Made by a program: the position numbers and the translations under genes
Source: an uncultured candidate division WWE3 bacterium
Lineage (GTDB): Bacteria > Patescibacteriota > WWE3 > UBA101185 > UBA10185
Length of the DNA: 64,000 bases
Direction of reading: 5' to 3'
Assembly (NCBI GenBank): GCA_903879985.1
Contig: CAIRNR010000006.1
Span: 32,505-96,504 of the forward strand
Notes under the pieces: generated by a model
What the model was told of the DNA's origin: nothing
Database searches by the model: none
The model's input: the letters and a program-made list of their open reading frames with translations, nothing else
In this document: positions 5,755 to 35,410 of the stretch, one piece after another
Position numbering within the stretch: the first letter of the stretch is position 1
How the letters are laid out: each line of letters starts with the position of its first letter

Positions 5755-5831
5755 GGGCGGTTAGCTCAGTTGGTTAGAGCGCCACATTGACATTGTGGAG
5801 GTCATAGGTTCAATTCCTATATCGCCCACCA
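5755..5831 (+). tRNA. tRNA-Val (anticodon GAC)
   Basis: The cloverleaf was folded by hand. Acceptor stem GGGCGGT/ATCGCCC, D-stem GCTC/GAGC, anticodon stem CCACA/TGTGG with loop TTGACAT, T-stem ATAGG/CCTAT with a TTCAATT loop, and a 3' CCA. An upstream TAGAAT -10-like element is present. Confidence 0.85.
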
Positions 5832-5948
5832 TGAATTAATTATAGGGTCAGTTATTTCCACTTTATCTTTTACTAACCACAAGTCGGCTTGTCGCTATAA
5901 TATAATTGTTCTACCAGAATCACTCCTATATAGGCAGAGAGCAACGTT

Positions 5949-5961
5949 ACTAGGTATAATC
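5949..5961 (+). promoter_or_regulatory. Promoter-like -10 (AGGTATAAT) upstream of the first island gene
   Basis: ttactaggtataatc lies about 8 nt before ATG 5969. A second TATAAT occurs at about 5897. Confidence 0.25.
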
Positions 5962-5968
5962 TAATCAA

Positions 5969-6490
5969 ATGAAAACTTTAACAACCAACACAACTGAACT
6001 AGATAAAAACTCCATATCCCTCGCAGGAGAATTTGCCGTTCTTTCCCAATTAGCACTACGAGGATACGACGCAAATTTAACTCTTGGGCATACAAAAGGT
6101 GTTGATATTCTTATCTCTAATCCTAAAACAAATAAAATGTTTAAAATGGAGGTTAAAACCTCCTATAAAAATGTTCCTACGACATATAAATTATTTGGTC
6201 ATTGTTTAGCCTGGGTAATGGGAGAGAAAAACGAAAATATAGCCGATCAAAATTTATTCTACTGCTTTGTTAATATAGAACATCCTGATTATAAATTCCG
6301 ATTCTTCATAATACCAAGTGCTGTGGTAGCAAAATATGTGAAAGAGCAGCATCAATATTGGATTTCAACAAGGACAGAAGATGTTGAAACTACAACAATG
6401 CGCCAATTTAGAATCGGACTGGAAGAAACGAAATACAACATAGATACGCCATTAGCAAGAGACTACGAAGATATGTGGGACCTTAGTTAG
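5969..6490 (+). CDS. Hypothetical protein with a YraN/Hjc-like PD-(D/E)XK nuclease signature
   Basis: GEFAVLSQLALRGYDANLTLGHTKGVDILIS...MFKMEVKTS reproduces the UPF0102/Holliday-junction-resolvase pattern GE..A..L..GY...D-I/L...hEVKt. Confidence 0.35.
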   Translation: MKTLTTNTTELDKNSISLAGEFAVLSQLALRGYDANLTLGHTKGVDILISNPKTNKMFKMEVKTSYKNVPTTYKLFGHCLAWVMGEKNENIADQNLFYCFVNIEHPDYKFRFFIIPSAVVAKYVKEQHQYWISTRTEDVETTTMRQFRIGLEETKYNIDTPLARDYEDMWDLS

Positions 6491-6580
6491 TAAAACAGTA
6501 ATAATCAGATACTCCCTAACACATTCTTCAGATAATTTAACTTCATATAAAGCCCAAAAGAAAAGGAATACAATTTAACT

Positions 6581-6778
6581 GTGAAAATAACCTTCCAAAT
6601 CGATCCTCAATACGACTACGATATGGTGTTACATATGTTGCGAGGAAAAGATTGGCAAAATAGGGCTAAACGCATGGGTTTAGATTTCTCTTTGGTTGAA
6701 AAAATTAATCAGGCAACCGGCACCGATATGTGTATTTTACTACAGACTAATCCTGCACAAAAAGGCAGCTATATCTAA
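6581..6778 (+). CDS. Hypothetical small protein
   Basis: ORF only; no recognisable motif. Confidence 0.2.
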   Translation: MKITFQIDPQYDYDMVLHMLRGKDWQNRAKRMGLDFSLVEKINQATGTDMCILLQTNPAQKGSYI

Positions 6779-6812
6779 TTATTTATACTAAAGATATCCG
6801 TTAACTCATGTT

Positions 6813-7616
6813 TTGTTGCCAGATGACACAAACCCCACTATAGACTATCCTATAATCAACATGTCCGAATACTACAACAACCAAAGAACACCAAAAAACT
6901 GCTACACAAAAGGCCAAACCGAACCATTTAAACTAAGCCGCTCCAAAATAGACAGCTTCCTCAAATGCCCCCGCTGCTTCTACATCGACCGCGTACTAGG
7001 CACAGGACAACCTCCGGGATTTCCATTTGCATTAAACAGTGCGGTAGACCATCTATTAAAACTAGAATTCGATATTCATAGGGCAGCTGGCTCAAAACAC
7101 CCACTAATCGAAAAATATGGTGTTGATGCAATACCTGCAGCTCACAAAGACTTAAATATATGGCGTGAAAACTTTAAAGGCGTTCAATTTCTACACAAAC
7201 CAACAAATTTATATGTATTTGGAGCCATAGATGACCTCTGGATCAACTCTAAAGGCGAATACATAGTTGTAGACTACAAATCCACAAGTAAGGACGAAGA
7301 AATAACAACATTAAATAAAGATTGGCAGGACGGCTATAAAAGACAAATGGAGGTTTATCAATGGTTGCTAAGACAAAATGGTTATAAGGTTTCGGAGACC
7401 GGTTACTTTGTATATTGTAACGGCGACACCGACAAAGCTGCCTTTGATGCAAAACTTGAGTTTGATATTACCTTGATTCCTTATGTTGGGGATGATAGTT
7501 GGATTGAAAAGGTTCTATTTGATATTAAAAAGTGCTTGGAGTCGGATGTGTTACCGGCCAGCGGTGAGGATTGTGATTATTGCGCATATTTTTATGCTAG
7601 GAAGGGACACGAATGA
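6813..7616 (+). CDS. Cas4-like / RecB-family PD-(D/E)XK nuclease with four Cys (probable Fe-S cluster)
   Basis: N-terminal CPRC, GAIDDLWINSKGEYIVVDYKS (D...E-hDYK), RQMEVYQWLL (QxxxY) and C-terminal CDYCAY. A possible internal start is MSEYYNN at 6861. Confidence 0.6.
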   Translation: MLPDDTNPTIDYPIINMSEYYNNQRTPKNCYTKGQTEPFKLSRSKIDSFLKCPRCFYIDRVLGTGQPPGFPFALNSAVDHLLKLEFDIHRAAGSKHPLIEKYGVDAIPAAHKDLNIWRENFKGVQFLHKPTNLYVFGAIDDLWINSKGEYIVVDYKSTSKDEEITTLNKDWQDGYKRQMEVYQWLLRQNGYKVSETGYFVYCNGDTDKAAFDAKLEFDITLIPYVGDDSWIEKVLFDIKKCLESDVLPASGEDCDYCAYFYARKGHE

Positions 7617-8119
7617 CTGAAATAACAATGTTTGCACCATCAGAAGACTTAATCTTTAACAAAGATATAAACGCTTTAAAAGAAAGAACTCGCCGCGGAA
7701 TCATGTGTATCTTAGGCCGAAAATTAGAAGATCCTAAAAATGAGTACTGGGTTAATTACTGCGTATGCATAAAGAACAATTACTTTATACAAATAATGAC
7801 AACAGAAAAAGAAGATGGGTTATTAATAGAACTAAGCAGCAGCCATTATTCTTCAGGCAGACTAAATCAAGCTAAGCTAGACATTATTTCAAGTTATGGC
7901 TATGAATTTGGAAATAAAATGAATCCAAACTTTCATAAAACCGTAACATTAACCCCGGACTTATTGTTCGAATTAGGTGACGAACTAACCGACATAATGT
8001 ATCGCGTCTTTGACCTTGAACAGCATCAGCCATTGAAGATTGAGTATGATCAGGATGTTTATCGGGCACCTTCACCATTTGCATCACGTTTATTTGGTTG
8101 GTTAAGAGGTATTAAATGA
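7613..8119 (+). CDS. Hypothetical protein (operon member)
   Basis: 4-nt ATGA overlap with the upstream gene; no known motif. Confidence 0.4.
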   Translation: MTEITMFAPSEDLIFNKDINALKERTRRGIMCILGRKLEDPKNEYWVNYCVCIKNNYFIQIMTTEKEDGLLIELSSSHYSSGRLNQAKLDIISSYGYEFGNKMNPNFHKTVTLTPDLLFELGDELTDIMYRVFDLEQHQPLKIEYDQDVYRAPSPFASRLFGWLRGIK

Positions 8120-8754
8120 ACCCAAACAACAAAACACTTTGCGCAACATGCAGCGGATTATTACCAGAAAACAAATGGCGACCTCGCCCAATAAACGAAT
8201 GGCGTGAAGTCATTTTATCCAAAGTATACAAATACGAAAACAACGACACCGATCCTAGATACGCCATATTCTCAAATGTCGCCTACAACCTTCAGTATTT
8301 AGAGTACTTACATAAATGCCTAGAAGAACAATATTTAACATCTGTTATTAGATCACAACTAGTAAAAACATTTACCTTAACATCTTCCCAAATTATTGAA
8401 TGCCTTTTGTATATCAAACTGCTTGATATGAAAGTAAACGAAAGCGAGATTTGGGAGTTTTCTAGAGCTTTGAAAATTGCCGAGCAAAAAAACGCGTACG
8501 GCCTTGGACCAATGTTTTATAAAAACGAATTGAAGAAAATTAAAGAGCTTAGAAATAAAGTTCATTTACAAACTTCTGAGGGTATCGCCGATGCTGATTA
8601 CGCTGTGTTTGCAAAAATTGAAGTGTTAAACGAAGTCAAAAAGATTTTGTTTAGTTTCATCCAAAAGTGTCTTTCGTTGCCAACGCCAACTATGAATGAA
8701 GTTTTTTATTTTTTGTTGCCTCTTGAGGATTATTTGCATTCGAGGAAGGATTAA
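8116..8754 (+). CDS. Hypothetical protein with an N-terminal CxxC (operon member)
   Basis: 4-nt ATGA overlap with the upstream gene; CATCSG near the N-terminus. Confidence 0.4.
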   Translation: MNPNNKTLCATCSGLLPENKWRPRPINEWREVILSKVYKYENNDTDPRYAIFSNVAYNLQYLEYLHKCLEEQYLTSVIRSQLVKTFTLTSSQIIECLLYIKLLDMKVNESEIWEFSRALKIAEQKNAYGLGPMFYKNELKKIKELRNKVHLQTSEGIADADYAVFAKIEVLNEVKKILFSFIQKCLSLPTPTMNEVFYFLLPLEDYLHSRKD

Positions 8755-8759
8755 AAACT

Positions 8760-9686
8760 ATGAAAAATTATTATAGAGTAATGTTAGGTCAAAAAAGCAT
8801 TTATGCTAAAGAAGCCTTTGAGGGTAACTTTATTGGAGCAGGATGGTTAGAAGATATTGATTTTACACATAAATTTCCGGATAACTGGCGCGAATTTAAC
8901 AAAAAATACATTCCTATCTACATAGAAGAGAACCCAGATAAAACAAAAGTTGCAGCCGGATTGGCCTGTGGGATGCTCTATACAATAACTAAAGGTATTC
9001 TTGTGGGTGATATTGTTTTATGTCCAGATGGTAAAGGAAACTACCTTGTAGGTGAAGTAATAGGTGAATATGAATATTTTAAGGGTGCGAATTTACCACA
9101 TAGACGAAAAGTTAGATGGTATCAAGATACGCTATCTCGAGATGAAATAAGTGAATCACTTAAGAATTCCGCTGGAAGCATTGGTACATTAAGTAATATT
9201 TCCAAATACGGAGCCGAAATTGAAGCTTTAATTTCGGGTAACCGTCCAGCTTCCATAATCTCTACGGACGAAACAATAGAAGATCCAAGCCTTTTTGCAC
9301 TTGAAAAACACTTAGAAGACTTTTTGGTACAAAATTGGCACCACACGGAACTTGGGCAACACTACGATATTTATTCAGAAGACGGAGAAATAGTAGGTCA
9401 ACAATACCCAAGCGACACCGGTCCAATTGACATTTTAGCTATAAGTAAAGATAAAAAAGAAATCCTTGTTGTAGAACTTAAAAAGGGAAGAGTAAGTGAT
9501 GTTGTAGTAGGTCAAATTCAAAGATACATGGGTTATGTTAAAGATGAATTAGCTGAAGAGAACCAAACAGTTAAAGGGGTTATTATAGGCTTTGAAGATG
9601 ATGTAAAGATACACAGAGCGTTATCTGTTGCACCCAACATTGATTTTTATACATATAAGATTCATTTTAAGTTAGAGAAAAAGTAA
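8760..9686 (+). CDS. Two-domain protein: N-terminal possibly PUA/EVE-like domain plus a C-terminal NucS/DUF91-like PD-(D/E)XK nuclease domain
   Basis: The C-terminus LEKHLEDFLVQNWHHTELGQHYDIYSEDGEIVGQQYPSDTGPIDILAISKDKKEILVVELKKGRVSDVVVGQIQRYMGYV fits E...D(IDIL)...ELK...Q..RY. The N-terminus has GAGW...ILVGDIVLCPDGKGNYLVGEVIGEYEY, which suggests a PUA-like fold. Confidence 0.5.
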   Translation: MKNYYRVMLGQKSIYAKEAFEGNFIGAGWLEDIDFTHKFPDNWREFNKKYIPIYIEENPDKTKVAAGLACGMLYTITKGILVGDIVLCPDGKGNYLVGEVIGEYEYFKGANLPHRRKVRWYQDTLSRDEISESLKNSAGSIGTLSNISKYGAEIEALISGNRPASIISTDETIEDPSLFALEKHLEDFLVQNWHHTELGQHYDIYSEDGEIVGQQYPSDTGPIDILAISKDKKEILVVELKKGRVSDVVVGQIQRYMGYVKDELAEENQTVKGVIIGFEDDVKIHRALSVAPNIDFYTYKIHFKLEKK

Positions 9687-9759
9687 TTATGGTGGATAAC
9701 GATGTCAGCTTGCTTAATATAAGAAATTTCAGAAATCATTTGGTATATAATGAAGCAGC

Positions 9760-10899
9760 ATGTTAGAAAACAATATTATCAACTCATTTAATGAATTTTT
9801 AACTTACTACGACGCATCCTCAAAGGATGAGCTTTGGAAAAATCAAAGCATAATTTTCCATAATTACTGGACAAGCAAAATCTTAAACAACAGTGATGAA
9901 TTAAACGACTTCGAAACTGATGAAATTGTTAAAATATTAGACAGAAACGGAAAAGGTAATACACACTCTAGTGATGCCATAGCCAAGGCTATGATACCTC
10001 AAGGCGCCTGGAGAAGGATGTTTAATGAAATTAAAAGCGAAGCTAGACTAAAGGAATTATTGAACAATATCTTCTCTGAAAACGATAACTCCAAGAAAAT
10101 TGAATATGTAAATCAATTATATAAATACAACGAAAAAAATAGAAATAGCCTAACAGGTAATAGCGGTACAGCAATAAATTGTATGGTTGCAGCTTGGGAC
10201 CCATTTAAAAACATAAGTGCTGTTTCTCTCAAGCATAGAAAGAAAATTTTTGAATTTCTGCAACTATCGGGGCTTGATTTTGATGAAGATACTCAAGGAA
10301 AAAAGATTGTAGTATCCAACGAACTAATATTAGGTTTTTTTGAAAACAAGGGCATAACAGCATCGGCAAGAACAATTTCTGCCTTCCTCTACAGTGACCC
10401 CATTAAAAAATTATGGGAAATAGACACAGGTGACGAAATTGTTCCTTATACAGAAGAAATACCCATATCCGAAACTGAGGGAACGACAAATCCTTCAATA
10501 TTTTATATGGAAAGCCAACTTGAGGATTTCATTATAGAAAACTGGGACAATACAGAATTAGGTAAAAGTTACGATTTGATTGAAGAAGAGGGTGAAATTG
10601 TAAGCCAACAATATCGCACACCAATAGGCATAATTGATATATTAGTTAAAGAAAAGAAAACAGACCGCTATGTCGTGATTGAACTAAAGAGGGATCAAAC
10701 TAGCGACTCTACTGTAGGTCAGTTAGCACGATACATGGGTTGGATTGAAGAAAATAAAGGCAAAGGCTTGCCACCCAAAGGTATCATCATCACTGCCAAA
10801 TATGACGAGAAATTGTTTTATGCACTTAAAAAAATCAAGGACACCGAAATTTATTTATACGAGGTTAAGTTTAAATTAAACGAATTCAAAAAATCCTAA
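9760..10899 (+). CDS. Two-domain protein: unknown N-terminal domain plus a C-terminal NucS/DUF91-like PD-(D/E)XK nuclease domain (paralog of the previous gene's C-terminus)
   Basis: MESQLEDFIIENWDNTELGKSYDLIEEEGEIVSQQYRTPIGIIDILVKEKKTDRYVVIELKRDQTSDSTVGQLARYMGWI aligns motif-for-motif with the C-terminus of 8760..9686. Confidence 0.5.
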   Translation: MLENNIINSFNEFLTYYDASSKDELWKNQSIIFHNYWTSKILNNSDELNDFETDEIVKILDRNGKGNTHSSDAIAKAMIPQGAWRRMFNEIKSEARLKELLNNIFSENDNSKKIEYVNQLYKYNEKNRNSLTGNSGTAINCMVAAWDPFKNISAVSLKHRKKIFEFLQLSGLDFDEDTQGKKIVVSNELILGFFENKGITASARTISAFLYSDPIKKLWEIDTGDEIVPYTEEIPISETEGTTNPSIFYMESQLEDFIIENWDNTELGKSYDLIEEEGEIVSQQYRTPIGIIDILVKEKKTDRYVVIELKRDQTSDSTVGQLARYMGWIEENKGKGLPPKGIIITAKYDEKLFYALKKIKDTEIYLYEVKFKLNEFKKS

Positions 10900-11024
10900 G
10901 AAACTTTAAAATTTAGTTACAACCATTTATAGATCCGTAAAACAGCATAATCAATGTAATTTTCTTATTCCAATGCTACCATTACTAGTATCGCTAATTG
11001 TTTTGTACACAATAGGATCACTTT

Positions 11025-12140
11025 ATGGCCATAGTGTATAACCAAATAGGTTCATTAACTGAGTTATTAAACAGATGTAGAGAAAAAGGGATTACATTCG
11101 ACTCCATGGAGCAGGTAGAGGAATTTTTAAACAGCTACCATGAAAATATAAAAGTCGCCGCCGAAAAAGCAGAAGAAAACTTCAATAAAACCATAGGAGA
11201 GGCTAACAACACACTGAATATCGCCGTGGAAAATTATGAGGTAGAAAAGAAAGCTATAGTTGCTTTAATTGATAACAAATTAGCAGCTTTGTCTGTTGCA
11301 ATAGCTACGTCACAAAGTACCACCACAAATCCTATTAGCAAAATATTGAATAATCTACGTGTTAATAAATATACACAGGCGCGAGTCAAACTAGAAAACA
11401 ATTATGATGCTGAAATCGAAAAACATCTTAAAATATTCACTGAAGAAATCAACAATGCAAGATCAGACCTTAACTATAAACTTATTAATCACGATATCTT
11501 GACCACTAAATATAAAGACGACTACATAAACAAGCTACAGCATACTTATGAAATTTTAATGGAAAATGGTGCTTTCCTTTACGGTGCTAAAGGCGAACAC
11601 ATGGCCTTAATAGAGCTTAAAAAACTCCCTGACACATATACTGTTATTAACAATGCCTGCTTCAACTTTCGACCGGGAATTCATGATAAAGGAAACAATG
11701 ATTGGATATATTCCGCACAAATTGATCACGTTGTAGTAGGACCAACAGGTATTTTTCTTATAGAAACTAAGAATTGGCGCCAAGAATCTACAACCAATAA
11801 AGATTTCTTTTCTCCGGTTAAACAAATTAATCGCTCGGGACTTGCTATATACGTGCGTCTAAATAATGCAATTAAAGATGGATATTTAATAAGCTTCAAC
11901 ATTCAGTGGGGGACACAAAAGATAACCATGAAAAAGTTGGTATTATTAACAGGTTACAGTCAAAGCGACGAATACGATTTTGTTAAATTAGTAACATTAA
12001 GGGATTTAAGATCGTATATTACTTACGGTAAACTCGTTTATAACGAGACACAAATTAAGGATATTGTGAGGTTCTTTCGTGAAGAGGGCTACGGGAATAA
12101 TACTTCAAGGTCAATCGGAATGGGCGATTTTAGGAGGTGA
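11025..12140 (+). CDS. NERD (nuclease-related domain) protein with an N-terminal coiled-coil
   Basis: GAKGEHMALIELKKLPDTYTVINNACF...QIDHVVVGPTGIFLIETKNW matches the NERD signature G.KGE...L..L......V.N.......IDHVVV...GIF.IE.K. Confidence 0.55.
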   Translation: MAIVYNQIGSLTELLNRCREKGITFDSMEQVEEFLNSYHENIKVAAEKAEENFNKTIGEANNTLNIAVENYEVEKKAIVALIDNKLAALSVAIATSQSTTTNPISKILNNLRVNKYTQARVKLENNYDAEIEKHLKIFTEEINNARSDLNYKLINHDILTTKYKDDYINKLQHTYEILMENGAFLYGAKGEHMALIELKKLPDTYTVINNACFNFRPGIHDKGNNDWIYSAQIDHVVVGPTGIFLIETKNWRQESTTNKDFFSPVKQINRSGLAIYVRLNNAIKDGYLISFNIQWGTQKITMKKLVLLTGYSQSDEYDFVKLVTLRDLRSYITYGKLVYNETQIKDIVRFFREEGYGNNTSRSIGMGDFRR

Positions 12141-13227: not shown

Positions 13228-13779
13228 TTAATTAGCCGACGTAGCCTTTTTAGCATTATACTCAACAGCAAACTGACTAAACTTCTCTCTGATACTTTTC
13301 ATATCGTATATTCCTAAATCCCATGAATCAAGCCCTCTTGCGTAGACTACATAGTTTGGATATTTCGTATTAAATTTTAGGTTACCATTCATTGGGTCTA
13401 CACCCCACCATTCATCTTTTATAAAACATTCAGCAAAAACATGTCCTCCGACTCTATCAGGATTGTCTGAAAAATAAGATTTAGAGATTACTTCAACATA
13501 CTTTGTGGGTATACCTTTGGCCCGTGCAATAGCTACAAACACAAGAGCAAAATCGGTGCAGCCAGTTGCAAAACCATCGTTTATTATTTGATCTGCGGTT
13601 CTTGTTCTAAAGATATCGTTTTTTTCAATACCATCTGGAGCAGGGTATTTAATATTTTTATTAACCCAGCGTAAAGCTTTAACAACAAATTCGAAATCAG
13701 TAACTTCAATAGAGTTAACTATTTCTGTAATTTTTGGTGTTATTTCAGTTTGTTTTCCTGCCTTTAAAAAGTTTTCCAT
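13228..13779 (-). CDS. Transglutaminase-like superfamily cysteine peptidase-like protein
   Basis: GCTDFALVFVAIARAKGIPTKYV...GGHVFAECF...WWGVDP gives a Cys-His-Asp arrangement. The N-terminal MENFLKAGKQTE is shared with the next gene. Confidence 0.5.
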   Translation of the reverse strand: MENFLKAGKQTEITPKITEIVNSIEVTDFEFVVKALRWVNKNIKYPAPDGIEKNDIFRTRTADQIINDGFATGCTDFALVFVAIARAKGIPTKYVEVISKSYFSDNPDRVGGHVFAECFIKDEWWGVDPMNGNLKFNTKYPNYVVYARGLDSWDLGIYDMKSIREKFSQFAVEYNAKKATSAN

Positions 13780-13794
13780 AGCAGCAGTTTAGCC
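13743..13794 (-). repeat. 52-bp repeat copy A: 15 nt of 5'-UTR plus the first 37 nt of the CDS
   Basis: tttcAgtttgttttcctgcctttaaaaagtTttccatagcagcagtttagcc is near-identical (2 mismatches) to 14316..14367. Confidence 0.8.
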
Positions 13795-13841: not shown

Positions 13842-14351
13842 CTAATTCTCTTTGAAACACTTAGCCATCTCGACCATTTCAATCTTTTCGTTATCCAAAG
13901 GAAACTCAATACTCTTAACTTTTTTAAAACCAAGGGACTCGTAAAAGGGAACAGCGTTTAAGGTTGCAAATAAAGAAATCTTTTCTTTGCGGTTATTTAT
14001 AAAGTCTCTCTCAATAAAAGAGTATAGAAACTTTCCATAACCTTTACCTTGAAAACTTGGATCTATTTGGATTTGATAAAGCTCTTCGCCGTCAAGGTCA
14101 TATTGGCAAAATCCAACAGTGCTGTTTGCTTCCTTTAGGACAAGCCACTTAGTGTTGCTAAACTGATCTAACACATTTTTTTCGTTTATTTGGTTTACCC
14201 ATTCTTTGACAACGTTTTCTGAGTAAGTTTTTGAATTAGTTTTTAAGATACAGTCTTTGTGAATGTTAACAATATCAGCAACGTCTTCTTTGGTTGCTTC
14301 TAAAAGATTGACCATTTCGGTTTGTTTTCCTGCCTTTAAAAAGTCTTCCAT
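13842..14351 (-). CDS. GNAT family N-acetyltransferase
   Basis: QIDPSFQGKGYGKFLY...LNAVPFYESLGFK acetyl-CoA binding motifs. The N-terminus MEDFLKAGKQTEM is shared with the previous gene. Confidence 0.6.
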   Translation of the reverse strand: MEDFLKAGKQTEMVNLLEATKEDVADIVNIHKDCILKTNSKTYSENVVKEWVNQINEKNVLDQFSNTKWLVLKEANSTVGFCQYDLDGEELYQIQIDPSFQGKGYGKFLYSFIERDFINNRKEKISLFATLNAVPFYESLGFKKVKSIEFPLDNEKIEMVEMAKCFKEN

Positions 14352-14367
14352 AGCAGCAGTTTAGCCC
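14316..14367 (-). repeat. 52-bp repeat copy B: 15 nt of 5'-UTR plus the first 37 nt of the CDS
   Basis: See copy A. Confidence 0.8.
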
Positions 14368-14485: not shown

Positions 14486-15820
14486 ATGGACACGCTGAAG
14501 CCCAAAGATTGGCTTTTTCTTATTCCATTTCCAAACCAACCGTTTTTCTTGCTATACGCTCCCTTGCATGGCCTGGTAACAAAGTTATCTCCAGCAGGAG
14601 CTGAACAGCTGCAAAATTTGCTAGATACTGTTTCGGCTGGTGGTAGTAAAGCGGAATTTAACCCAGTTATGGTCAAGTTTCTTACAGATAATAATTTACT
14701 GTCGCTTCCGGCACACTGGGCTATACCCAATAAAGTATTGCCGGGTGAACAAGGAATTACGGTATCTTTGACCAATGACTGTAATCTTCGCTGTATTTAC
14801 TGCTACGCGGGGGCCGGTTGCGATACGATGACAATTCCCTATGACGTAGCAAAGAACGCAATAATTTATGGTTTGCGTTTAGCAAAGGCACGTGGAAGAG
14901 CCCATTTTAGGCTAACATTCCACGGGGGCGGTGAATCACTAAAGCGCAAAGATCTGCTCAAAAAATGTATCATTTTTGCACTGAAAGAAGCTAAGGCGCT
15001 TGGGCTAACGTTGCATGTGAGCATTGTAACTAATGCAACGCTTATTTCTGAAAGTTTTGCACGGTGGTTAAAAGCACACAGCGTTGATAACATCACCGTT
15101 TCACTAGATGGTGTAGCACCGGTACAGGATTTACAACGCCCTCTGGTAAACGGTAAAGGATCGTTTAAAGCCGCCATGTTGGGAATATCTAACCTCAAAA
15201 AAGTTGGCTTAGATTTCTCTATTCGTGCGACTGTTACCAGAAAGAGTGTGGAGGAAATGCCGAATTTTGTAAGATTCCTTGCACACGAAGTTCTTAATGG
15301 TGTAAACGGACTCGTACATTTCGAGCCTTTATCACTTTGTGGAAAGGCACGTGGAGCTACCCATTTAGACGTTGATCCGCAGCTCTTTGTAAAATATTAC
15401 ACTGAAGCGCGCAAGGTCGGGTTAGAGCTGGGTATTCGCATTGTCTGCACGTTAGATACTTTCCGCAAGGATAAATTGCAATTCTGTGGAGCAAGTACAG
15501 GTACCATGTTTTGTGTATGTCCGGATGGTTCCATTTCAGGGTGCTCGCGCGTTACAAAAAAGCAAGATCCCGGCGCGGAGTTGTTTTTCTATGGCAAATT
15601 CAAACCCGCCATAAAGCAACCTGAAATAGACCAAGATGCACAAGCACTTATAGCAAAACATGGTCAATTACCTGAAAAGCTATGTTCAACATGCTTCGCA
15701 AGGTGGAATTGCCAAGGATTCTGTCCGATTTCAAGATTCCTGGGCGAAGATACCTTTCAAGAGTCTTGTATAATTGTGAAGCAGATGCTTCTACAAGACA
15801 TGTTGTTAGAATTCTTATAG
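14486..15820 (+). CDS. Radical SAM / SPASM-domain peptide maturase
   Basis: CNLRCIYCYA (CxxxCxxC), GGGE-like HGGGESL, and a C-terminal Cys cluster CSTCFARWNCQGFCP (SPASM/twitch). Confidence 0.8.
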   Translation: MDTLKPKDWLFLIPFPNQPFFLLYAPLHGLVTKLSPAGAEQLQNLLDTVSAGGSKAEFNPVMVKFLTDNNLLSLPAHWAIPNKVLPGEQGITVSLTNDCNLRCIYCYAGAGCDTMTIPYDVAKNAIIYGLRLAKARGRAHFRLTFHGGGESLKRKDLLKKCIIFALKEAKALGLTLHVSIVTNATLISESFARWLKAHSVDNITVSLDGVAPVQDLQRPLVNGKGSFKAAMLGISNLKKVGLDFSIRATVTRKSVEEMPNFVRFLAHEVLNGVNGLVHFEPLSLCGKARGATHLDVDPQLFVKYYTEARKVGLELGIRIVCTLDTFRKDKLQFCGASTGTMFCVCPDGSISGCSRVTKKQDPGAELFFYGKFKPAIKQPEIDQDAQALIAKHGQLPEKLCSTCFARWNCQGFCPISRFLGEDTFQESCIIVKQMLLQDMLLEFL

Positions 15821-15836
15821 AAAGGAGAAAATAACA

Positions 15837-16016
15837 ATGGGTACCGATTTCACGCAAGTTGTTCGATGGCAACCTCGGTTAGCTGTAAACGCAAACTGCT
15901 CAGCTGAGACATGTCCCTCTGATGGAAAATGCTCTTCAGATGACAGTTCCGGTCATTCTTGCAGCGGCAACACTAACGACCCGTGTCCGCACGACAGTTC
16001 CTGTCCAAAAGACTAA
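15837..16016 (+). CDS. 59-aa Cys-rich putative RiPP precursor peptide (not in the ORF track)
   Basis: An AAAGGAGAAAA RBS lies 6 nt before the ATG, immediately after the rSAM stop. It translates to MGTDFTQVVRWQPRLAVNANCSAETCPSDGKCSSDDSSGHSCSGNTNDPCPHDSSCPKD, with six Cys in C-x-x-(D/E/N) repeats. Confidence 0.55.
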   Translation: MGTDFTQVVRWQPRLAVNANCSAETCPSDGKCSSDDSSGHSCSGNTNDPCPHDSSCPKD

Positions 16017-16033
16017 CGACACCTGTCACAAAC

Positions 16034-16082
16034 AAAGGGACTACTTCTTATATACTTAGAAGTAGTCCCTTTACCTTTTTTT
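16034..16082. terminator. Rho-independent terminator between convergent genes
   Basis: Perfect 15-bp stem AAAGGGACTACTTCT / AGAAGTAGTCCCTTT with an 8-nt loop, followed by ACCTTTTTTT. Confidence 0.65.
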
Positions 16083-16101
16083 AATGAAAAATTGTGTTAA
16101 C

Positions 16102-16983
16102 TTAATATTTTATTTTATTGAGATAGTCTGTTGTCAATTTTTCGGGCTTATCTTTTTCCAAAACCTCTAAATACTTTGCAGGCAATAGCATATCTAAATC
16201 AGTTCCTACTAATGAATAATTCTGTATGTTTTCTTCTGAATGACTTAAATACACTACAAGTGCACGGATTATGGATTCCTCTACATAAGTACTTGGATCC
16301 GCGTATGATCCCAAAACTTCTTCTGGCATTTTTTTGAGATAATCAACTACATCTTCTGGAATGGTTAAGGTACATTTATCTAAATAGCTGTGAGTTAATT
16401 CGTGCAGTATTTGACTTAAATTTATTCCTTCTTTTTTCCATCCAACCATAATGTAATAACCATCTTTAGTTTTTATACATTTTCCTGATGTATCCCAATT
16501 TCTAGTTAAATAAAAAGTCTTAATATCAGGTTCGAAGTCGAAGTGATTTTTAAAAAGATTTTCTATATCACTAAAACGTTCTTCAAATTCGTTTAGGCGC
16601 TTATCAAAATCCGGTTCGTATTGTTTCCACAGATTTTGTAATTCCGGTAATAAAGATATTCGGTCAACATAATCTAAAACTTCTTTGGCAGGAAGCATAA
16701 ACTTACCGTTATCATCATAGCCAGCGGAGTTAAATATTCCCATAAGATAATGGTAGCTATGCATGGGCATATCCAGTTTTGGAGTTCCTGATTTCTCAAG
16801 TATTGCTACAACCTTATCTTTGAGTTCAGAAACCCAATCTTTGTAGCCAATAGTGCGATTATTAGCATAAAACATAGCACAGTACATGTGGAAATGTTTT
16901 TGTAACTTAACTGTTTTAAGTTCCATACCACCATGATACAACAAATGTGGGGTTTTGAACGATAAGCCCACCTCCGGCACCAA
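16102..16983 (-). CDS. Hypothetical HExxH zinc-metallopeptidase-like protein
   Basis: LHELTHSYLD motif; no other recognisable domain. Confidence 0.4.
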   Translation of the reverse strand: MVPEVGLSFKTPHLLYHGGMELKTVKLQKHFHMYCAMFYANNRTIGYKDWVSELKDKVVAILEKSGTPKLDMPMHSYHYLMGIFNSAGYDDNGKFMLPAKEVLDYVDRISLLPELQNLWKQYEPDFDKRLNEFEERFSDIENLFKNHFDFEPDIKTFYLTRNWDTSGKCIKTKDGYYIMVGWKKEGINLSQILHELTHSYLDKCTLTIPEDVVDYLKKMPEEVLGSYADPSTYVEESIIRALVVYLSHSEENIQNYSLVGTDLDMLLPAKYLEVLEKDKPEKLTTDYLNKIKY

Positions 16984-17000
16984 AATGCTAAACTACACGT

Positions 17001-17681
17001 ATGCTTAATCTAAATATTCAATATTCCTTAGAGAAAGATGCTGAAACTTACGTTAGCTACGTCTACCAATTTGAAGCTTTAGAACATGGCAGAGTAAACC
17101 CAAAAAAAGAATTACTCGAAAGACTTGATCAGGAATTACAAAATATTTTGGCTAACACAAAAGATAAGGAAACGGCATATACAGAGGTACTTTCTTACCT
17201 AACTAAAAAGAACTATGAAAACCCACAGTTGCTCAAAAATAGCATCAAAACCCTTGAAGACCGCTGGAACGCTGTAGGAAGCCAAGTAATTTATTCTTTA
17301 GAATTTTTATATAATAAACCCTTTCCGTTTGAAAACGTCACACTGTATTTAACAACCAATAATATATGTCCATATTCTTATGAAGATAAGTATTTCTTTG
17401 CAAACTACAAATATGCCTCAGAACAAATGGATATCGCAAAACATGAACTAAACCATTTTATGTTCTATTACTATTACGATTCATTAAGAAATAAACTGGA
17501 CTTAGAAAAATATGAGCTTCTTAAAGAAGCATTAACGCTTTTTTCAAGTCCTAACCAAACTGGAAAACCAAACGAACTTCCTTTAAGAAAGTTTTTTGAA
17601 ACAAAGTTATGGGCAAATCTTGATGAGGCTATTGCAGCTGGTTGTGATTTCCTATTAAAGTACTATCCTGAAGTCAAATAA
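17001..17681 (+). CDS. Hypothetical HExxH-motif protein
   Basis: AKHELNHFMF motif. Confidence 0.35.
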   Translation: MLNLNIQYSLEKDAETYVSYVYQFEALEHGRVNPKKELLERLDQELQNILANTKDKETAYTEVLSYLTKKNYENPQLLKNSIKTLEDRWNAVGSQVIYSLEFLYNKPFPFENVTLYLTTNNICPYSYEDKYFFANYKYASEQMDIAKHELNHFMFYYYYDSLRNKLDLEKYELLKEALTLFSSPNQTGKPNELPLRKFFETKLWANLDEAIAAGCDFLLKYYPEVK

Positions 17682-17782
17682 TAGGCAGGTACTGTAAGGA
17701 ATAAGGGAATTAAGCTGTAACAACGCAAAAGTTCCAAACACACAATACGCAAATAAAATACCAGTGTTATCATTAAAACCAG

Positions 17783-18163
17783 ATGCTCATATACAAATAC
17801 ATCGAAAACTACTTTGAAGATAATCCGGGTGCAGAAGCTTTCTGCGAGGAACACGACATAGTATATTTCACACCTACACCTGAGCGAAAAGCATGGCTTG
17901 AAAACTGGCTTAAAACTGCAAAACCTCCGATTATTGAATGTACGCCTGATGTTGTTTGCTATTGGAGATACTTTGGGGTTTGGGGAGAATATCACCCAAA
18001 CAATAATTCCATATCAATATGCCCAATTGAAATAGAAAAGGCCGGGGGTTTGGAGGAGGTTATTAGACACGAACTAGTGCACCTGCAACATCCTGAAGCT
18101 AACGATATGCCTCACGAGGAAAAAGAGGATTATATAAATAACGCAGGTAAAAGCAAAGAATAG
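17783..18163 (+). CDS. Small HExxH protein, SprT/WLM-like
   Basis: IRHELVHLQHPE is HExxH plus a downstream His, as in SprT-like domains. Confidence 0.35.
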   Translation: MLIYKYIENYFEDNPGAEAFCEEHDIVYFTPTPERKAWLENWLKTAKPPIIECTPDVVCYWRYFGVWGEYHPNNNSISICPIEIEKAGGLEEVIRHELVHLQHPEANDMPHEEKEDYINNAGKSKE

Positions 18164-18420
18164 CCTAGTCTTCCTAAAGAGTTTTTTAATCGATGACTCT
18201 GCAAAAGTTCCAAACATCCTCCATAATCTCCCACCAGGCTTTTCAGCTTGGTATACCAACATTATTTTTATATACCCAACTAGGAATTTAGACCTATCCA
18301 CGACCAAACCACTACCCTATAGTTTGACTATTTACCCATTTTATCCTATAATTACATCATAAATCGTTATTAAACCGCACAATTATGACGGCTAATCAAA
18401 AATAAAAAGGGAGATAAAAA

Positions 18421-18681
18421 ATGGTACGCAACACAATGATGCTACCCAAAGTAATGGGCGATGAAACAACTGACACCAGAGATGCGTTGGAAAAACTGGG
18501 ATTCATCATAACCAACGACACATATTCCGACTCATACGAAGTGTTGGCACCGGAAGGTTGGACAATAGAATGGAAAGGTCGCGATGGCGCTGTTTTTAAT
18601 GAAAAACATGAGGCTGTTGTCTGGCTTTGGAGAAAAACGGATTTCTGGCAACCGATATTTACGATGCGTCTGCATCCCTAA
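18421..18681 (+). CDS. Hypothetical small protein
   Basis: AAAAGGGAGAT RBS; preceded by a partial copy of the repeated leader. Confidence 0.35.
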   Translation: MVRNTMMLPKVMGDETTDTRDALEKLGFIITNDTYSDSYEVLAPEGWTIEWKGRDGAVFNEKHEAVVWLWRKTDFWQPIFTMRLHP

Positions 18682-18715
18682 GTCGCCAGAAATAAACAGA
18701 AGGATGTATATTTAG

Positions 18716-18843
18716 CACAAGAGGCAAACAGTAGAAATCCTTACTGCTTTGCCTCCTAACTCAAGTTTATTTTTTTAAAGTAGATTTAAGTTAGGAAGTT
18801 TAACCGCATAAATGACTGCGGAATCATAATCAAAGGAGACGAC
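18716..18843 (+). repeat. Repeated structured intergenic element, copy 1 (hairpin, T-run and conserved leader)
   Basis: GAGGCAAACAGTAG...TACTGCTTTGCCTC hairpin, then CTAACTCAAG...TTAAGTTAGG, then CCGCA...TGCGG just before the AAAGGAGA RBS. Paralogous to 19325..19457 with compensatory changes. Confidence 0.6.
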
Positions 18844-19305
18844 GTGAAAACGATAAAGGCTACAATAGAAATTTTGGATAAGTTACATCAAGTACTGATG
18901 GAATGCGGTGAAACTGCCGAGATTACTGGGGAAAATAAAAAGTTTTACTTTATTGAAAAACCCAGCAGAGTAATCTCAAAGAGATCAAAAGGATTGGTAA
19001 TTTTGACCCCGGATGAAGTCCTAAATCTTCACCTGCAAAGACTTGACGGAGAAGATTTTGAAAAGTTTCTCAAAAATAGCACACTGGGAGATCAATGGGC
19101 GCCTGCAATACACACCATCTGGAACACATACAAACAACGTGCAGGTGTGGAAACAGTGGAGGACCATGCTGATAACTATAACCTCGGGCATGGATTAATT
19201 CGATACTGGTTCAAAACAGCACGAAAGAATTTATGGTACTGCGAAGTGCGCCAGAAGGAATCAGAAACGATAATGTCCAGGTATTTTCATTTTTACGGGT
19301 ACTAA
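18844..19305 (+). CDS. Hypothetical protein (GTG start)
   Basis: AAAGGAGAC RBS; ORF only. Confidence 0.35.
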   Translation: MKTIKATIEILDKLHQVLMECGETAEITGENKKFYFIEKPSRVISKRSKGLVILTPDEVLNLHLQRLDGEDFEKFLKNSTLGDQWAPAIHTIWNTYKQRAGVETVEDHADNYNLGHGLIRYWFKTARKNLWYCEVRQKESETIMSRYFHFYGY

Positions 19306-19324
19306 AAGTAATCAGAAAATGCGC

Positions 19325-19457
19325 AGTGTAACAAGGGACAAACAGTAGCACAATTTTACTGCTTGTCCCCTAACTTAAGTCTATTTACCAAAGTAGGTTT
19401 AAGTTAGGAATTTAATCGCATACGATCTGATGCGAAATTATAAAAGGAGAGACAGCT
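19325..19457 (+). repeat. Repeated structured intergenic element, copy 2
   Basis: GGGACAAACAGTAG...TACTGCTTGTCCCC, then CCTAACTTAAG...CTTAAGTTAGG, then TCGCAT...ATGCGA before the AAAGGAGAG RBS. Confidence 0.6.
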
Positions 19458-19691
19458 ATGCCAATGAAAATCGATAGTATGAAAGTGGGCGAAAAATACA
19501 AGATAAATGTTCACGACGAAGACAACAAGCCGCTAACCCTGGAATTCACCATCCTTGAAATAGATTGGTATCCAAGTGCCACGGGCAGAGGATTTTTCCA
19601 CGGCACGAAGGTTCAATTTACAACGGGAGAAATTGAAATCCTTCCATTTCTCGTGCTTGATTCCGCTGAAAAAGTAAAGGAAGAGGCATAA
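19458..19691 (+). CDS. Hypothetical small protein
   Basis: RBS plus ORF; a terminator follows. Confidence 0.35.
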   Translation: MPMKIDSMKVGEKYKINVHDEDNKPLTLEFTILEIDWYPSATGRGFFHGTKVQFTTGEIEILPFLVLDSAEKVKEEA

Positions 19692-19709
19692 GTTAATATC
19701 TGCACTAAA

Positions 19710-19756
19710 AGGGTCTTTGACAGTTAAAATGCTGCTAAAGACCCTGATTTTTTTTA
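19710..19756 (+). terminator. Rho-independent terminator
   Basis: AGGGTCTTT...AAAGACCCT stem followed by GATTTTTTTTTATT. Confidence 0.55.
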
Positions 19757-19815
19757 TTCTTTAACAACACAAAAATTCCATTGACACTAGAAATTAAATA
19801 GAACTAAACTAAGAT

Positions 19816-20007
19816 ATGAAAAAGATTGCAATCTTACTTGGCATAATTATATTAATTTTAATGGCATATTTTTCGTATTCTTTCTTTTACATGAAATCCT
19901 TCTTAGGTAAACCTACTATTACTTGTGCCAAAGGAGAATATATACATCAAGGTCCTATTTGGCCAAATCCTAATTATTGTTGTCCAAAAGACACGATTTG
20001 TGACTAA
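19816..20007 (+). CDS. Small membrane/secreted Cys-rich peptide (63 aa)
   Basis: N-terminal hydrophobic helix MKKIAILLGIIILILMAYF, then 4 Cys (TCAKGEY...YCCPKDTICD). Confidence 0.3.
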   Translation: MKKIAILLGIIILILMAYFSYSFFYMKSFLGKPTITCAKGEYIHQGPIWPNPNYCCPKDTICD

Positions 20008-20143
20008 TAAATAAGTTAAACCTCTAATTCACGCGAACATCTTATAGCGTTTGACCTTTTATCCGAGTACAGCTACAATACCAAGCAATTGCAATATTAA
20101 CCGCAACAAATAAAGTAGCGGAATAAACGGAAACGGAGGAAAG

Positions 20144-20407
20144 ATGATCTTAAAAGATTTTGTTGAAGGAAAAGAGTACATATTATCCAATGTACCAGGG
20201 CTGACCACGTTTACCTTTGAAACAAACTCCGACAAACGTGTGCTTTTTACCGCGCCAGAAGTGCGCTTAAAGTTTTTGCAACCGAATCTGGAATTCGATG
20301 GCAATTACTTAACCTTTGAGGTTCTCGATGGCGAGCACAAAGGAAAGACAGTGGACATCATGGTGAGCAACGTCGACCGGATTTCTGAAAGCGAAAAGGA
20401 AAACTAA
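20144..20407 (+). CDS. Hypothetical protein
   Basis: GGAGGAAAG RBS; translationally coupled (taacATG) to the next ORF. Confidence 0.35.
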   Translation: MILKDFVEGKEYILSNVPGLTTFTFETNSDKRVLFTAPEVRLKFLQPNLEFDGNYLTFEVLDGEHKGKTVDIMVSNVDRISESEKEN

Positions 20408-20408: not shown

Positions 20409-21080
20409 ATGCCTTGCATAAGAATTTGGGCAAAACAGCAGGACCTGGATAAAATTTCCACTACGCCACAACGGCTGGAAAGAATACAGGAAGCGTTGGA
20501 AGATTTACTGATGAAAACTTTGGCCGAAACATTGAGCCAAAACGGTAATGTTGTGACGCCGGATAAGATCGAAGTTGTGTGGGCCATTACTCAACGCACG
20601 CGCAACTCAGTGAATTATGCTGTGGACATTTTGTTTTCAGAACGAAGTGAAACTGGTGATCCTGGCTACATAACCGACCCGGAACTGCGACAGCAAATTC
20701 GTGATGAGATGCTGTACGCAGTAACCACGTTTCAAAAGTTACCTTTGAACGCTACGGTAGGTGTATGGGTCTGCCCGCAACTTGGTGGAGCATACACATC
20801 AGGACAATGCCAACCTGATATGGCAAAAGAAAGGTTTGTTCCAAAAAAGTATTACGTACTCCAGAATAGGGCGGGAACAAAAACCTTTGGCCTCGTGACA
20901 CGCACAAACAGTGTGGTCGCCTTGGCAGAAGGACACATAACAATGCGTTTTGTTGGATATACCCAAAAACCCGGAGAGGATCTGTTTTTGACCTTTAAAG
21001 TTGAAAGCGGCGCAAACATCGGTGAAGTCATTGATATACGACCATCAAATGCGCACAAGTTTGTTGAGTCGTACGTTTAA
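20409..21080 (+). CDS. Hypothetical protein (GC-elevated segment)
   Basis: ORF followed by a strong terminator. Confidence 0.4.
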   Translation: MPCIRIWAKQQDLDKISTTPQRLERIQEALEDLLMKTLAETLSQNGNVVTPDKIEVVWAITQRTRNSVNYAVDILFSERSETGDPGYITDPELRQQIRDEMLYAVTTFQKLPLNATVGVWVCPQLGGAYTSGQCQPDMAKERFVPKKYYVLQNRAGTKTFGLVTRTNSVVALAEGHITMRFVGYTQKPGEDLFLTFKVESGANIGEVIDIRPSNAHKFVESYV

Positions 21081-21093
21081 GTTTAGTACCAAA

Positions 21094-21131
21094 AACCCTC
21101 TACGGATGAGAAACGCAGAGGGTTATTTTTT
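21094..21131 (+). terminator. Rho-independent terminator
   Basis: AACCCTCT...AGAGGGTT stem followed by ATTTTTTCC. Confidence 0.6.
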
Positions 21132-21711: not shown

Positions 21712-21757
21712 AGGGAGCTACATCAAATAAAACTGATGCCGGCTCCCTTATTTTTTG
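21712..21757 (+). terminator. Terminator-like hairpin plus T-run
   Basis: AGGGAGC...GCTCCCT stem followed by TATTTTTTGG. It is preceded by a second perfect hairpin CTACGAA...TTCGTAG (21680-21703). Confidence 0.45.
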
Positions 21758-34708: not shown

Positions 34709-34736
34709 ATTTAGAAATCTAAACTCGAATACATTT

Positions 34737-34767
34737 AAGGGTGCTGGGACAACAAACCAGCGCCCTT
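34737..34767 (+). terminator. Hairpin downstream of pilin 1 (weak T-tract)
   Basis: AAGGGTGCTGG...CCAGCGCCCTT with one G-U pair. Confidence 0.3.
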
Positions 34768-34849
34768 AATTATTCTCAGAAAAAATAAAGTTGACACTTG
34801 TTTTATACAGATCTATCCTTAACATAGTAAAAAAATTTTTCTATTTTAG

Positions 34850-35314: not shown

Positions 35315-35349
35315 ATACAAATATTAACTCACTTCCTACTGGATTTGAA

Positions 35350-35378: not shown

Positions 35379-35410
35379 TTATGCAGTAGATATTTTTTAA
35401 GGAGAAAATA

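Follow-up and report, generated by a model that had tools for sequence, protein, structure and literature searches.

A three-hairpin intercistronic element, possibly a cis-acting RNA, occurs twice in a predicted operon of an uncultured WWE3 bacterium

We analysed a 64,000-nt stretch of DNA from an uncultured candidate division WWE3 bacterium (contig CAIRNR010000006.1 of assembly GCA_903879985.1, positions 32,505-96,504; hereafter the window) and focused on a predicted operon of three small open reading frames (ORFs). An element of about 125 nt, composed of three hairpins that we call A, M and B, lies in each of the two intergenic spacers of this operon. The sequence makes it likely that the locus is one transcription unit, running from a promoter at 18324 through ORF1, the element, ORF2, the element again and ORF3 to a terminator at 19710. 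The genes and the signals that bound them are listed here, with the basis of each assignment in brackets.

18324-18352, plus strand: predicted sigma-70 promoter of the operon, TTGACT-17-TATAAT, 11/12 matches (promoter scan)
18421-18681, plus strand: ORF1, 86 aa, without a family, a single weak homologue among 1.84 billion representatives (family and protein searches)
18844-19305, plus strand: ORF2, 153 aa, an ORFan that matches only itself among 5.8 billion proteins (protein searches)
19458-19691, plus strand: ORF3, 77 aa, no family (family searches)
19710-19755, plus strand: canonical intrinsic terminator closing the operon, hairpin at 19710-19745 (-19.8 kcal/mol) and then U8 (fold, sequence)

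The promoter at 18324 is the best sigma-70 match of the region. No mutual relatedness of ORF1, ORF2 and ORF3 was detectable, and no Pfam, PHROG or PADLOC family was found for the small plus-strand ORFs at 16-22 kb. The one weak homologue of ORF1 sits on a 1.4-kb contig, and a single-sequence AlphaFold model of ORF2 was unusable (pLDDT 36.7), being too poor for a fold search. Beyond the operon, ORF 20144 (20144-20407, 87 aa) and the C-terminal third of its neighbour ORF 20409 (20409-21080) are paralogous, with 30% identity and a blastp E of 1e-8. ORF3 is without detectable kinship to these C-terminal paralogues, so that no recognisable gene appears to have been duplicated together with the leader.

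A previous reading of this DNA from its letters alone (the sequence-only reading) had described a structured element of about 120 nt repeated at two sites, and this was confirmed by blastn, nhmmer, covariance models (CMs) and folding. The two copies share 76% identity over 127 nt (blastn E 1.5e-15), and they score 104 and 103 bits with nhmmer and 134 and 125 bits with a CM. Copy 1 lies in the spacer 18682-18843 and copy 2 in the spacer 19306-19457; they are 614 nt apart with a protein gene between them. The proposal that the element precedes each gene of a small-protein array did not survive, because the full A-M-B form occurs only twice. The parts of the two copies, each ending in a Shine-Dalgarno sequence (SD) and a start codon, are as follows.

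18719-18846, plus strand: element copy 1, whole (A-M-linker-B-SD-GTG) (fold, blastn, nhmmer, CM, alignment)
18721-18755, plus strand: hairpin A of copy 1, 14 pairs with one bulged C, loop AAAUCC, -17.7 kcal/mol, no U-tract behind it (fold, alignment)
18756-18795, plus strand: hairpin M of copy 1, 17-18 pairs including 3 G·U, one C·A mismatch, loop UUU (fold, alignment)
18796-18803, plus strand: linker of copy 1, (G)AAGUUUAA, AU-rich, unpaired and conserved, a proposed endonuclease site (fold, alignment; cleavage inferred)
18804-18821, plus strand: hairpin B of copy 1, CCGCA / UGCGG, 8-nt loop (fold, alignment, CM)
18832-18846, plus strand: SD AAAGGAGA and GTG start of ORF2 (sequence, ORF list)
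19333-19460, plus strand: element copy 2, whole (fold, blastn, nhmmer, CM, alignment)
19335-19369, plus strand: hairpin A of copy 2, 13 pairs and a 1x1 internal loop, loop CACAAUU, -16.3 kcal/mol (fold, alignment)
19370-19408, plus strand: hairpin M of copy 2, 17-18 pairs including 3 G·U (fold, alignment)
19409-19415, plus strand: linker of copy 2, AAUUUAA, unpaired and conserved (fold, alignment)
19416-19435, plus strand: hairpin B of copy 2, UCGCAU / AUGCGA, 8-nt loop (fold, alignment, CM)
19443-19460, plus strand: SD AAAGGAGA and ATG start of ORF3 (sequence, ORF list)

Each copy thus presents, in plus-strand order, hairpin A, hairpin M, an unpaired linker, hairpin B, a spacer, the SD and the start codon. 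Hairpin A is GC-rich, has 13-14 bp and folds alone with -17.7 kcal/mol in copy 1 and -16.3 kcal/mol in copy 2. Hairpin M abuts it without a gap and is an AU-rich stem of 17-18 bp with 3 G·U pairs and a 3-4-nt loop, worth about -9 to -12 kcal/mol alone. The 3' arm of this inverted repeat had been given as CTTAAGTTAGG, which is an error; the arm reads TTTAAGTTAGG, and the position concerned forms a G·U wobble. The linker of 7-9 nt between M and B is unpaired in the folds and conserved between the copies. Hairpin B has 5-6 bp and an 8-nt loop in these two copies (-4 to -5 kcal/mol alone) and is followed by a conserved spacer that leads to the SD AAAGGAGA. The fold leaves the SD and the start codon unpaired in both copies.

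Folded whole, the copies reach minimum free energies of -37.5 (copy 1) and -38.4 (copy 2) kcal/mol, with z-scores of -5.0 and -5.4, and 0 of 200 shuffles were as stable. Both element spacers rank at the top in structure per nucleotide among the 22 gene gaps of at least 80 nt in the window, tRNA and terminator gaps aside, and at 152-162 nt they are unusually long for a compact genome. The element starts 37 nt (copy 1) or 27 nt (copy 2) past the upstream stop codon. At the other end the similarity reaches the downstream start codon, suggesting that the element travels with the downstream gene.

We aligned the two copies by hand on the basis of their structure, checking each pair. Paired columns were identical in 63 of 76 cases (83%) and hairpin-loop columns in 3 of 18 (17%; Fisher p 2e-7). 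The unpaired columns outside loops were identical in 27 of 40 cases, from which we conclude that the loops drift while the linkers are kept. The most conserved block comprises the 3' arm of M and the linker, with 25 of 27 bases the same. Among the 38 pairs, three show double compensatory changes. Two are in hairpin A, at columns 4-37 (A-U to G-C) and 6-35 (G-C to A-U), and one is the first pair of hairpin B, at columns 87-106 (C-G to U-A), and so the compensatory changes that had been described in these two hairpins are real. Two one-sided changes preserve pairing by way of a wobble (U-A to U-G and U-G to C-G), one mismatch has turned into a pair, and the sole lost pair closes a loop. Altogether, 35 of the 36 gap-free pairs are intact despite 23 substitutions (13 transitions and 10 transversions), and 0 of 200,000 random placements of the substitutions on copy 1 matched that. 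Given the 10 substitutions that fall in stems, p was 1.5e-5 for unbiased substitution, about 4e-4 with transitions at their observed frequency (13/23) and 0.026 with transitions only. Divergence between the copies has demonstrably avoided breaking pairs. Taken together, these counts indicate that base pairing is preserved well beyond neutral expectation and that the structure is selected.

The sequence-only reading had reached the same view by a different route, taking covariation itself as the sign of selection on RNA structure. The conclusion stands through the substitution-placement null, and the route does not: a column-shuffle control for covariation was not significant (71/500). With two sequences and three double changes this control cannot drop much below 1/8, and therefore covariation of the kind that R-scape tests is not demonstrable here. 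That reading had also named an absence of further copies, combined with unsupported covariation, as one outcome that would refute it. No further full copies were found in the data we reached, whereas the substitution-placement statistics hold.

The pairs that are not Watson-Crick indicate which strand folds. The plus strand has 4 G·U pairs per copy, and A·C pairs, which would be the wobble of the minus strand, number 1 and 0. Counted as distinct columns, 5 of 7 are plus-strand wobbles (p of about 0.002 by a binomial estimate with 1/6 expected), and the plus strand folds better than the minus strand by 2.4-3.5 kcal/mol. This pattern argues that the folded molecule is RNA of the sense strand, and against both an antisense RNA and a palindrome in double-stranded DNA. 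The element is best read as acting in cis at the RNA level, within the 5' leader of the gene that follows it.

The same data bear on another explanation, that the copies are a functionless local duplication or give rise to antisense RNA from minus-strand promoter-like sites at 19464-19437 and 18850-18823. There are only two copies and they are adjacent, and copy 2 does hold a minus-strand TTGGCA-16-TATAAT match (11/12), with a 9/12 site at the same place in copy 1. Neutral decay, however, is rejected by the preservation of pairing. As for antisense RNA, promoter-like sites in the region are not above shuffles (16 found versus 18.4 expected), the third B copy described below is without a minus-strand site and the wobble pairs favour the plus strand. 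We regard this explanation, in either form, as highly improbable.

The hairpin of the terminator at 19710 has the same shape as hairpin A. A CM of A, M and B together (R1), run over the whole window with filters off, included among its weak plus-strand matches three island terminators (16035, 19709 and 21711), which have the two-tier stem of A and its AAGGG...CCC ends, plus T6-T8 right after the stem. Measured against the criteria for an intrinsic terminator, hairpin A has the GC-rich hairpin and lacks the U-tract, being followed by CUAACU in both copies, and a terminator scan of the region did not call it. The suggestion that the element includes a terminator is not supported, because A is without the U-tract that all three real island terminators carry. 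A weaker version would make A a leaky or factor-dependent terminator or attenuator that stops part of the transcripts, giving a falling gradient of expression along the operon. The stem and ends shared with the three canonical terminators speak for it; the missing U-tract at either A, beside nearby real terminators that all have T6-T8, and the silence of the terminator scan speak against it, and it leaves M and B without a role. We think it very unlikely. As a separate observation, the island terminators at 16035-16090, 19710-19755, 21713-21755 and 21093-21131 share one form, (A/C)AGGG..., a two-tier stem, ...CCC and a T-run.

Hairpin B, with its flanks, also occurs apart from A and M, in the leaders of ORF1 and ORF 20144. 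The features concerned are these.

18370-18414, plus strand: decayed module B and SD GGGAGA (18409-18414) in the ORF1 leader (Smith-Waterman, fold)
20051-20079, plus strand: predicted promoter of the next unit, TTGACC-17-TACAAT, its -10 ending 17 nt before TTAACCGCA (promoter scan)
20090-20146, plus strand: third intact module B (TTAA-CCGC-13-nt loop-GCGG-AAT), SD GGAGG and ATG of ORF 20144 (CM, 46.7 bits, E 3e-8)

A partial third copy had been reported before ORF1 (ORF 18421). Its sequence is indeed similar to the B region of copy 1 (Smith-Waterman score 26, reached by 0 of 2000 shuffles), but only 3 bp of its hairpin remain (z -0.8), and it was missed by nhmmer and by both CMs. The module in the leader of ORF 20144, which the sequence-only reading did not include, is intact and came up among the weak plus-strand matches of R1; it reads TTAACCGC, a 13-nt loop, GCGGAAT, GGAGG and ATG. 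A CM built from the three B modules (R2) scored them at 44-47 bits (E about 1e-7) and found no further match in the 64-kb window. The three genes behind these modules have a conserved B stem and flank (UUAA-CCGCA...UGCGG-AAU) in one set position 5' of the SD, and the loops of the three intact modules measure 8, 8 and 13 nt. The -10 of the ORF1 promoter ends exactly 17 nt before the TTAAACCGCA of the decayed module, the distance from the -10 hexamer to TTAA(A)CCGCA being 17 nt in the leaders of both ORF1 and ORF 20144, and the two promoter-leader regions can be aligned with each other starting at the -35. With this spacing, B would begin about 10-15 nt into the predicted transcript. Since B stands alone in these two promoter-proximal leaders, it behaves as a leader module near the RNA 5' end. 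The A-M part was found only at cistron junctions.

The position of B raises the alternative that the B or M hairpins are binding sites of a trans-acting regulator, perhaps a small protein of the operon, which would make ORF2, ORF3 and ORF 20144 a small regulon by repressing or activating their translation. The conservation of the B stem and flank at a fixed site upstream of the SD in three genes fits this, as do the 25 of 27 bases kept in the M 3' arm and linker and the presence of operon proteins without known function. The loops are unconserved, however, and that of B varies between 8 and 13 nt, which would be uncommon where a protein recognises a specific RNA. Family searches detected no RNA-binding domain in the neighbouring proteins, and the structure model of ORF2 is uninformative. 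Loop drift and variable B loop length make a poor fit to a loop-reading protein or to a DNA operator of fixed spacing, and we consider a trans-acting regulator quite unlikely. Freely varying loops together with conserved linkers suggest instead generic hairpin barriers combined with sequence-specific single-stranded sites.

We searched for further copies at several levels. The sequence-only reading had proposed a CM search for more copies, and none came up beyond the two full ones in about 82 kb of the genome and the loci of two distant relatives. Specifically, motif searches, nhmmer and two CMs with filters off found no further full copy in the 64-kb window, and the same models found none in the flanks of about 18 kb in the same genome or in the two relatives' loci. 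Rfam 15 run over the window returned only the tRNA at 5755-5828, and a permissive Rfam search of 18150-20200 gave best scores of 12-19 bits (E of at least 1.7), all far below threshold. This is the cross-check that had been asked of the element, and it places the element outside the known curated families. Exact blocks of the element matched only unrelated palindromes CCTAACTTAAGTTAGG of Ignavibacteria and Desulfurococcales among genome contigs. Among viral contigs the blocks had 0, 1, 13 and 117 matches, at the chance rate and with the neighbouring parts absent from all; among metagenome contigs, in a collection without the window's own contig, there were 5 chance matches. Searches of phages and plasmids by blastn gave nothing, and no viral relatives of ORF2 or ORF 20409 were found. 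The best source-named homologues of the GATase are from Parcubacteria, Buchananbacteria, Daviesbacteria and similar groups, at 56% identity or less, which places the organism in the Patescibacteria, and no synteny was found in the nearest relatives chosen by this protein. About 15 contigs from several samples carry the same genes with the locus identical in sequence, and represent one population; because all are identical, they hold no population variation to use. Samples in which this genome occurs include JGI 3300022555, ENA ERZ18629311 and further BUCK21 samples, ERZ27245625 and SRR5754711. As far as these data reach, the element appears to be confined to one operon of one uncultured species.

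Small ORFans with a shared, structured leader bring to mind the promoter early stem-loop (PeSL) elements of T4-type phages, which consist of a stem-loop, a sigma-70-like promoter, an SD and an ATG (PMC2839356, PMC4122927). Both systems have composite modules repeated in the gaps between the small ORFan genes of a variable region. Thus the element could be a DNA-level cassette junction, a portable stem-loop with expression signals that spreads or shuffles ORFans within a hypervariable island, in which case its hairpins would be inherited terminator or regulatory parts and not a dedicated RNA device. Several features are in line with such an origin. Unrelated ORFan genes share the same leader, and the order of stem-loop, middle part, SD and ATG mirrors the PeSL layout (PMC4122927). 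The island reuses regulatory pieces, namely B three to four times, two similar promoter-plus-B leaders and a recurring GCAAAAGTTCCAAACA motif, and hairpin A resembles the island terminators. The M 5' arm of copy 2 is weakly like the -35 region of the ORF1 promoter, and, of 16 ends of short metagenome contigs, 6 fall inside hairpins A2, M1 or M2 (A and M of copies 1 and 2).

Other features do not fit a cassette. Where a PeSL has its promoter the element has the M palindrome and hairpin B, and neither the promoter scan nor reading by eye found a plus-strand promoter match within either copy, M included; the sigma-70 promoter that defines PeSLs is thus missing from the M region, and an internal promoter in M was rejected for the same reason. 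The host is a cellular chromosome of the candidate phyla radiation (CPR) rather than a phage. At 76% identity with a longest identical run of 13 bases, the copies offer too little for ongoing homologous exchange, gene content is invariant among the roughly 15 contigs from several samples, and no recombinase was found within 10 kb by Pfam. Among the retrievable contigs of this one population we found none of the element-bounded insertions, deletions or replacements by which PeSLs are recognised. A cassette would also leave the compensating stem changes and the plus-strand wobbles unexplained. We consider it unlikely; cassette origin and RNA function could both be true, one explaining the origin and the other the function.

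Two observations belong beside this comparison. The M 5' arm of copy 2 (CCCTAACTTAAGTCTATTTACC, 19368-19389) and the -35 region of the ORF1 promoter (CCCTATAGTTTGACTATTTACC, 18315-18336) are alike at 16 of 22 positions. This likeness is not significant alone, and both segments are similarly placed upstream of module B; it hints that M may derive from a promoter region. The contig ends lie at 18782, 18789, 19358, 19385 and about 19387 (loci L009, L011, L013, L016 and L017), and one 607-bp contig spans exactly M1 to M2. Such ends could reflect coverage or assembly trouble or a strain-level rearrangement.

We compared the element with other repeat systems. Like the REP/BIME, ERIC, BOX and Correia families, which are folding intergenic repeats with tens to hundreds of dispersed copies per genome (survey PMC2267715), it is intergenic, of a size within about 40-130 nt and made of stable stem-loops that would be transcribed within mRNAs, and those families have reported effects on mRNA stability. 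Unlike them, it has two adjacent copies in about 82 kb and no others. It has no terminal inverted repeats of the MITE kind, only three internal hairpins, and its ends are not complementary; no transposase domain was found among the window ORFs that were scanned, a subset of all ORFs. A second candidate was the integron attC site, likewise a structured repeat between small promoterless ORFs of the same direction, since M starts with CCTAAC and ends with GTTAGG in the manner of R'' and R'. Tested against the attC core (R'' RYYYAAC, R' GTTRRRY), M reads (T/C)CCTAAC...GTTAGGA, which agrees with the core at its six inner bases and departs from it at the outer R and Y. M measures about 40 nt against 57-141 nt for attC and has no extrahelical bases or central bubble, its stem being continuous in copy 2 and broken by a single C·A mismatch in copy 1. 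The strand is also wrong, with 4 G·T pairs per copy on the top (coding) strand that would be A·C on the bottom strand. No tyrosine recombinase lies within 10 kb on either side or among the larger window ORFs scanned, again a subset, and there are only two sites. The template and variable repeats (TR/VR) of diversity-generating retroelements were rejected because substitutions of all kinds occur (13 transitions and 10 transversions) and are paired in stems, and no reverse transcriptase was found within 10 kb or among the other ORFs scanned. Type III toxin-antitoxin, CRISPR and TIGR arrays, in which short repeats follow head to tail across short spacers, do not match copies 614 nt apart with a protein gene between each. 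By eye, no conserved loop-loop kissing between A and B was seen. The best reading is that the element is a structured intercistronic RNA, which is a known general kind, and a new and very narrowly distributed example of it.

How might such an RNA work? Lying 30-40 nt past the upstream stop codon and so clear of the terminating ribosome, hairpins A and M would form a 3' barrier against 3' exonucleases that would protect the upstream cistron. Hairpin M may in addition be an RNase III substrate. The conserved, unpaired, AU-rich linker (GAAGUUUAA / GAAUUUAA) would be the entry point for an endonuclease, and hairpin B, the conserved spacer and the strong SD would make up the 5' leader of the downstream cistron, in which B would shield the new 5' end, keep the ribosome-binding site free, or both. 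The outcome would be selective RNA processing and stabilisation, in which one transcript yields separately stable or separately translated segments. What the analysis shows at the locus is the fold, the compensatory preservation of pairs, the folding strand, the position between promoter and terminator, and the reuse of B as a module.

Operon-internal protective hairpins and processing sites are known from selective RNA processing and stabilisation, as in RNase E cleavage of the papBA type (PMC5927463, Dar & Sorek 2018; PMC10667835). As in those systems, stable hairpins sit at the cistron boundaries of a polycistronic unit, the structures are under selection, and an unstructured AU-rich segment lies just 5' of the hairpin that would head the downstream fragment. 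Unlike those systems, the same three-hairpin composite is used twice in one operon with B reused in other leaders, and the element occupies long non-coding spacers and not coding sequence. A weak context for RNase Y is GA in AU-rich unstructured RNA with structure downstream (PMC11780869), and the RNase E motif RN|WUU is found upstream of protective hairpins in papBA and other E. coli operons (PMC5927463). The linker, G-A-A-(G)-U-U-U-A-A, is compatible with both.

For RNase III, the requirement is about two helical turns, and the element offers the 17-18 bp of M abutting the 13-14 bp of A. The genome encodes the enzyme (Ribonuclease_3 and dsrm domains, start at about 63410); a NusB gene lies at 62633-63097, and the RNase III gene runs past the end of the window. 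Phage T7 (R0.3 to R1.3) and Bacillus phage SP82 have RNase III sites between their early genes, and the upstream RNA keeps a 3' hairpin once cut. Similar hairpins between successive small genes of one transcript are common to those sites and to ours. There is no relation in sequence or family and no phage context here, and M is a plain 17-18-bp stem where T7 sites typically have an internal loop; A and B have no counterpart there.

Several points weigh against this mechanism. There are only two full copies, and formal covariation stood at 71/500. Orthologous copies were found in none of the genome, viral and metagenome collections or the relatives. The nuclease motifs are low in information, and M with its 17-18 bp is near the lower length limit for RNase III. 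B would be placed 8-15 nt from the proposed 5' ends, and the best-studied 5' stabilisers of B. subtilis sit closer to the 5' end than B does. Co-transcription, cleavage and effects on stability or translation are steps that we infer from the sequence. With these points in mind, we judge it quite possible, though a little short of probable, that the element is an operon-internal, cis-acting, sense-strand RNA module that acts post-transcriptionally on processing, stability or translation. That it works as a sense-strand RNA in cis we would hold with somewhat more confidence. Most likely, the folded RNA matters for the processing or translation of the operon message. A further possibility, distinctly unlikely in our estimation, is a more unusual system: either a lineage-specific "cistron junction" RNA of the CPR with a dedicated partner, or a first PeSL-like cassette that shuffles ORFans in a cellular genome. 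In the former case the partner could be an ORFan protein of the operon or a particular RNase, and RNA and partner would make up a small post-transcriptional regulon to which the B-only leaders of ORF1 and ORF 20144 would belong as well.

If our preferred reading of a cis-acting RNA module is true, the locus would be a compact example of a streamlined uncultured CPR bacterium tuning relative gene output within one operon by means of RNA structure. A limited literature search found no RNA-processing data for this lineage. The modular layout of 3' barrier, cut site, 5' leader hairpin and SD could also serve as a synthetic operon part. The reach of the element is limited to two full copies in one species-level population, ahead of genes without known function and with no relatives from which to generalise.

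The window is bacterial chromosome, with aminoacyl-tRNA synthetases, PBP1, trigger factor, ClpP, RecG and a type IV pilus cluster, and a GC content of 0.34-0.42. Other features of it were recorded along the way. The same genome has a further duplicated translation-start region, a 53-nt repeat (96% identical, 13742-13794 and 14314-14366) at the minus-strand starts of a transglutaminase-like and a GNAT acetyltransferase gene. The repeat takes in roughly 15 leader nucleotides and the start codon, and it reaches about 12 codons into these two adjacent and otherwise different genes. Near the operon, a motif AAC(G/A)CAAAA(G/A)TTCCA... recurs at 17710-17740, 18186-18216 and 19754-19784, intergenic and upstream of plus-strand genes. 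The third copy continues into TTGACA, the -35 of the promoter of ORF 19816. The motif possibly serves as a site for a regulator or as an UP-like element. Three neighbouring proteins without a family carry an HExxH motif (16102-16983 on the minus strand, 17001-17681 and 17783-18163, with HELTH, HELNH and HELVH) and may be small metallopeptidase-like paralogues. At 14486-16016, a radical-SAM gene is followed directly by a 59-aa Cys-rich ORF (15837-16016), a pair that resembles the maturase and precursor of a ribosomally synthesised and post-translationally modified peptide, with a GC content of 0.42 against about 0.34 nearby. The tRNA at 5755-5828 is followed by hypothetical and nuclease-domain genes up to 12140 (PD-(D/E)XK at 6813-7616, NucS/YhcG-like at 8760-10899 and NERD at 11025-12140), and 5755-12140 looks like an integrated or defence-type island. 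Finally, three tandem paralogous type IV pilin genes occupy 34244-35875, and upstream of them lie repeat families of 300 nt and 138 nt that are 69-77% identical.

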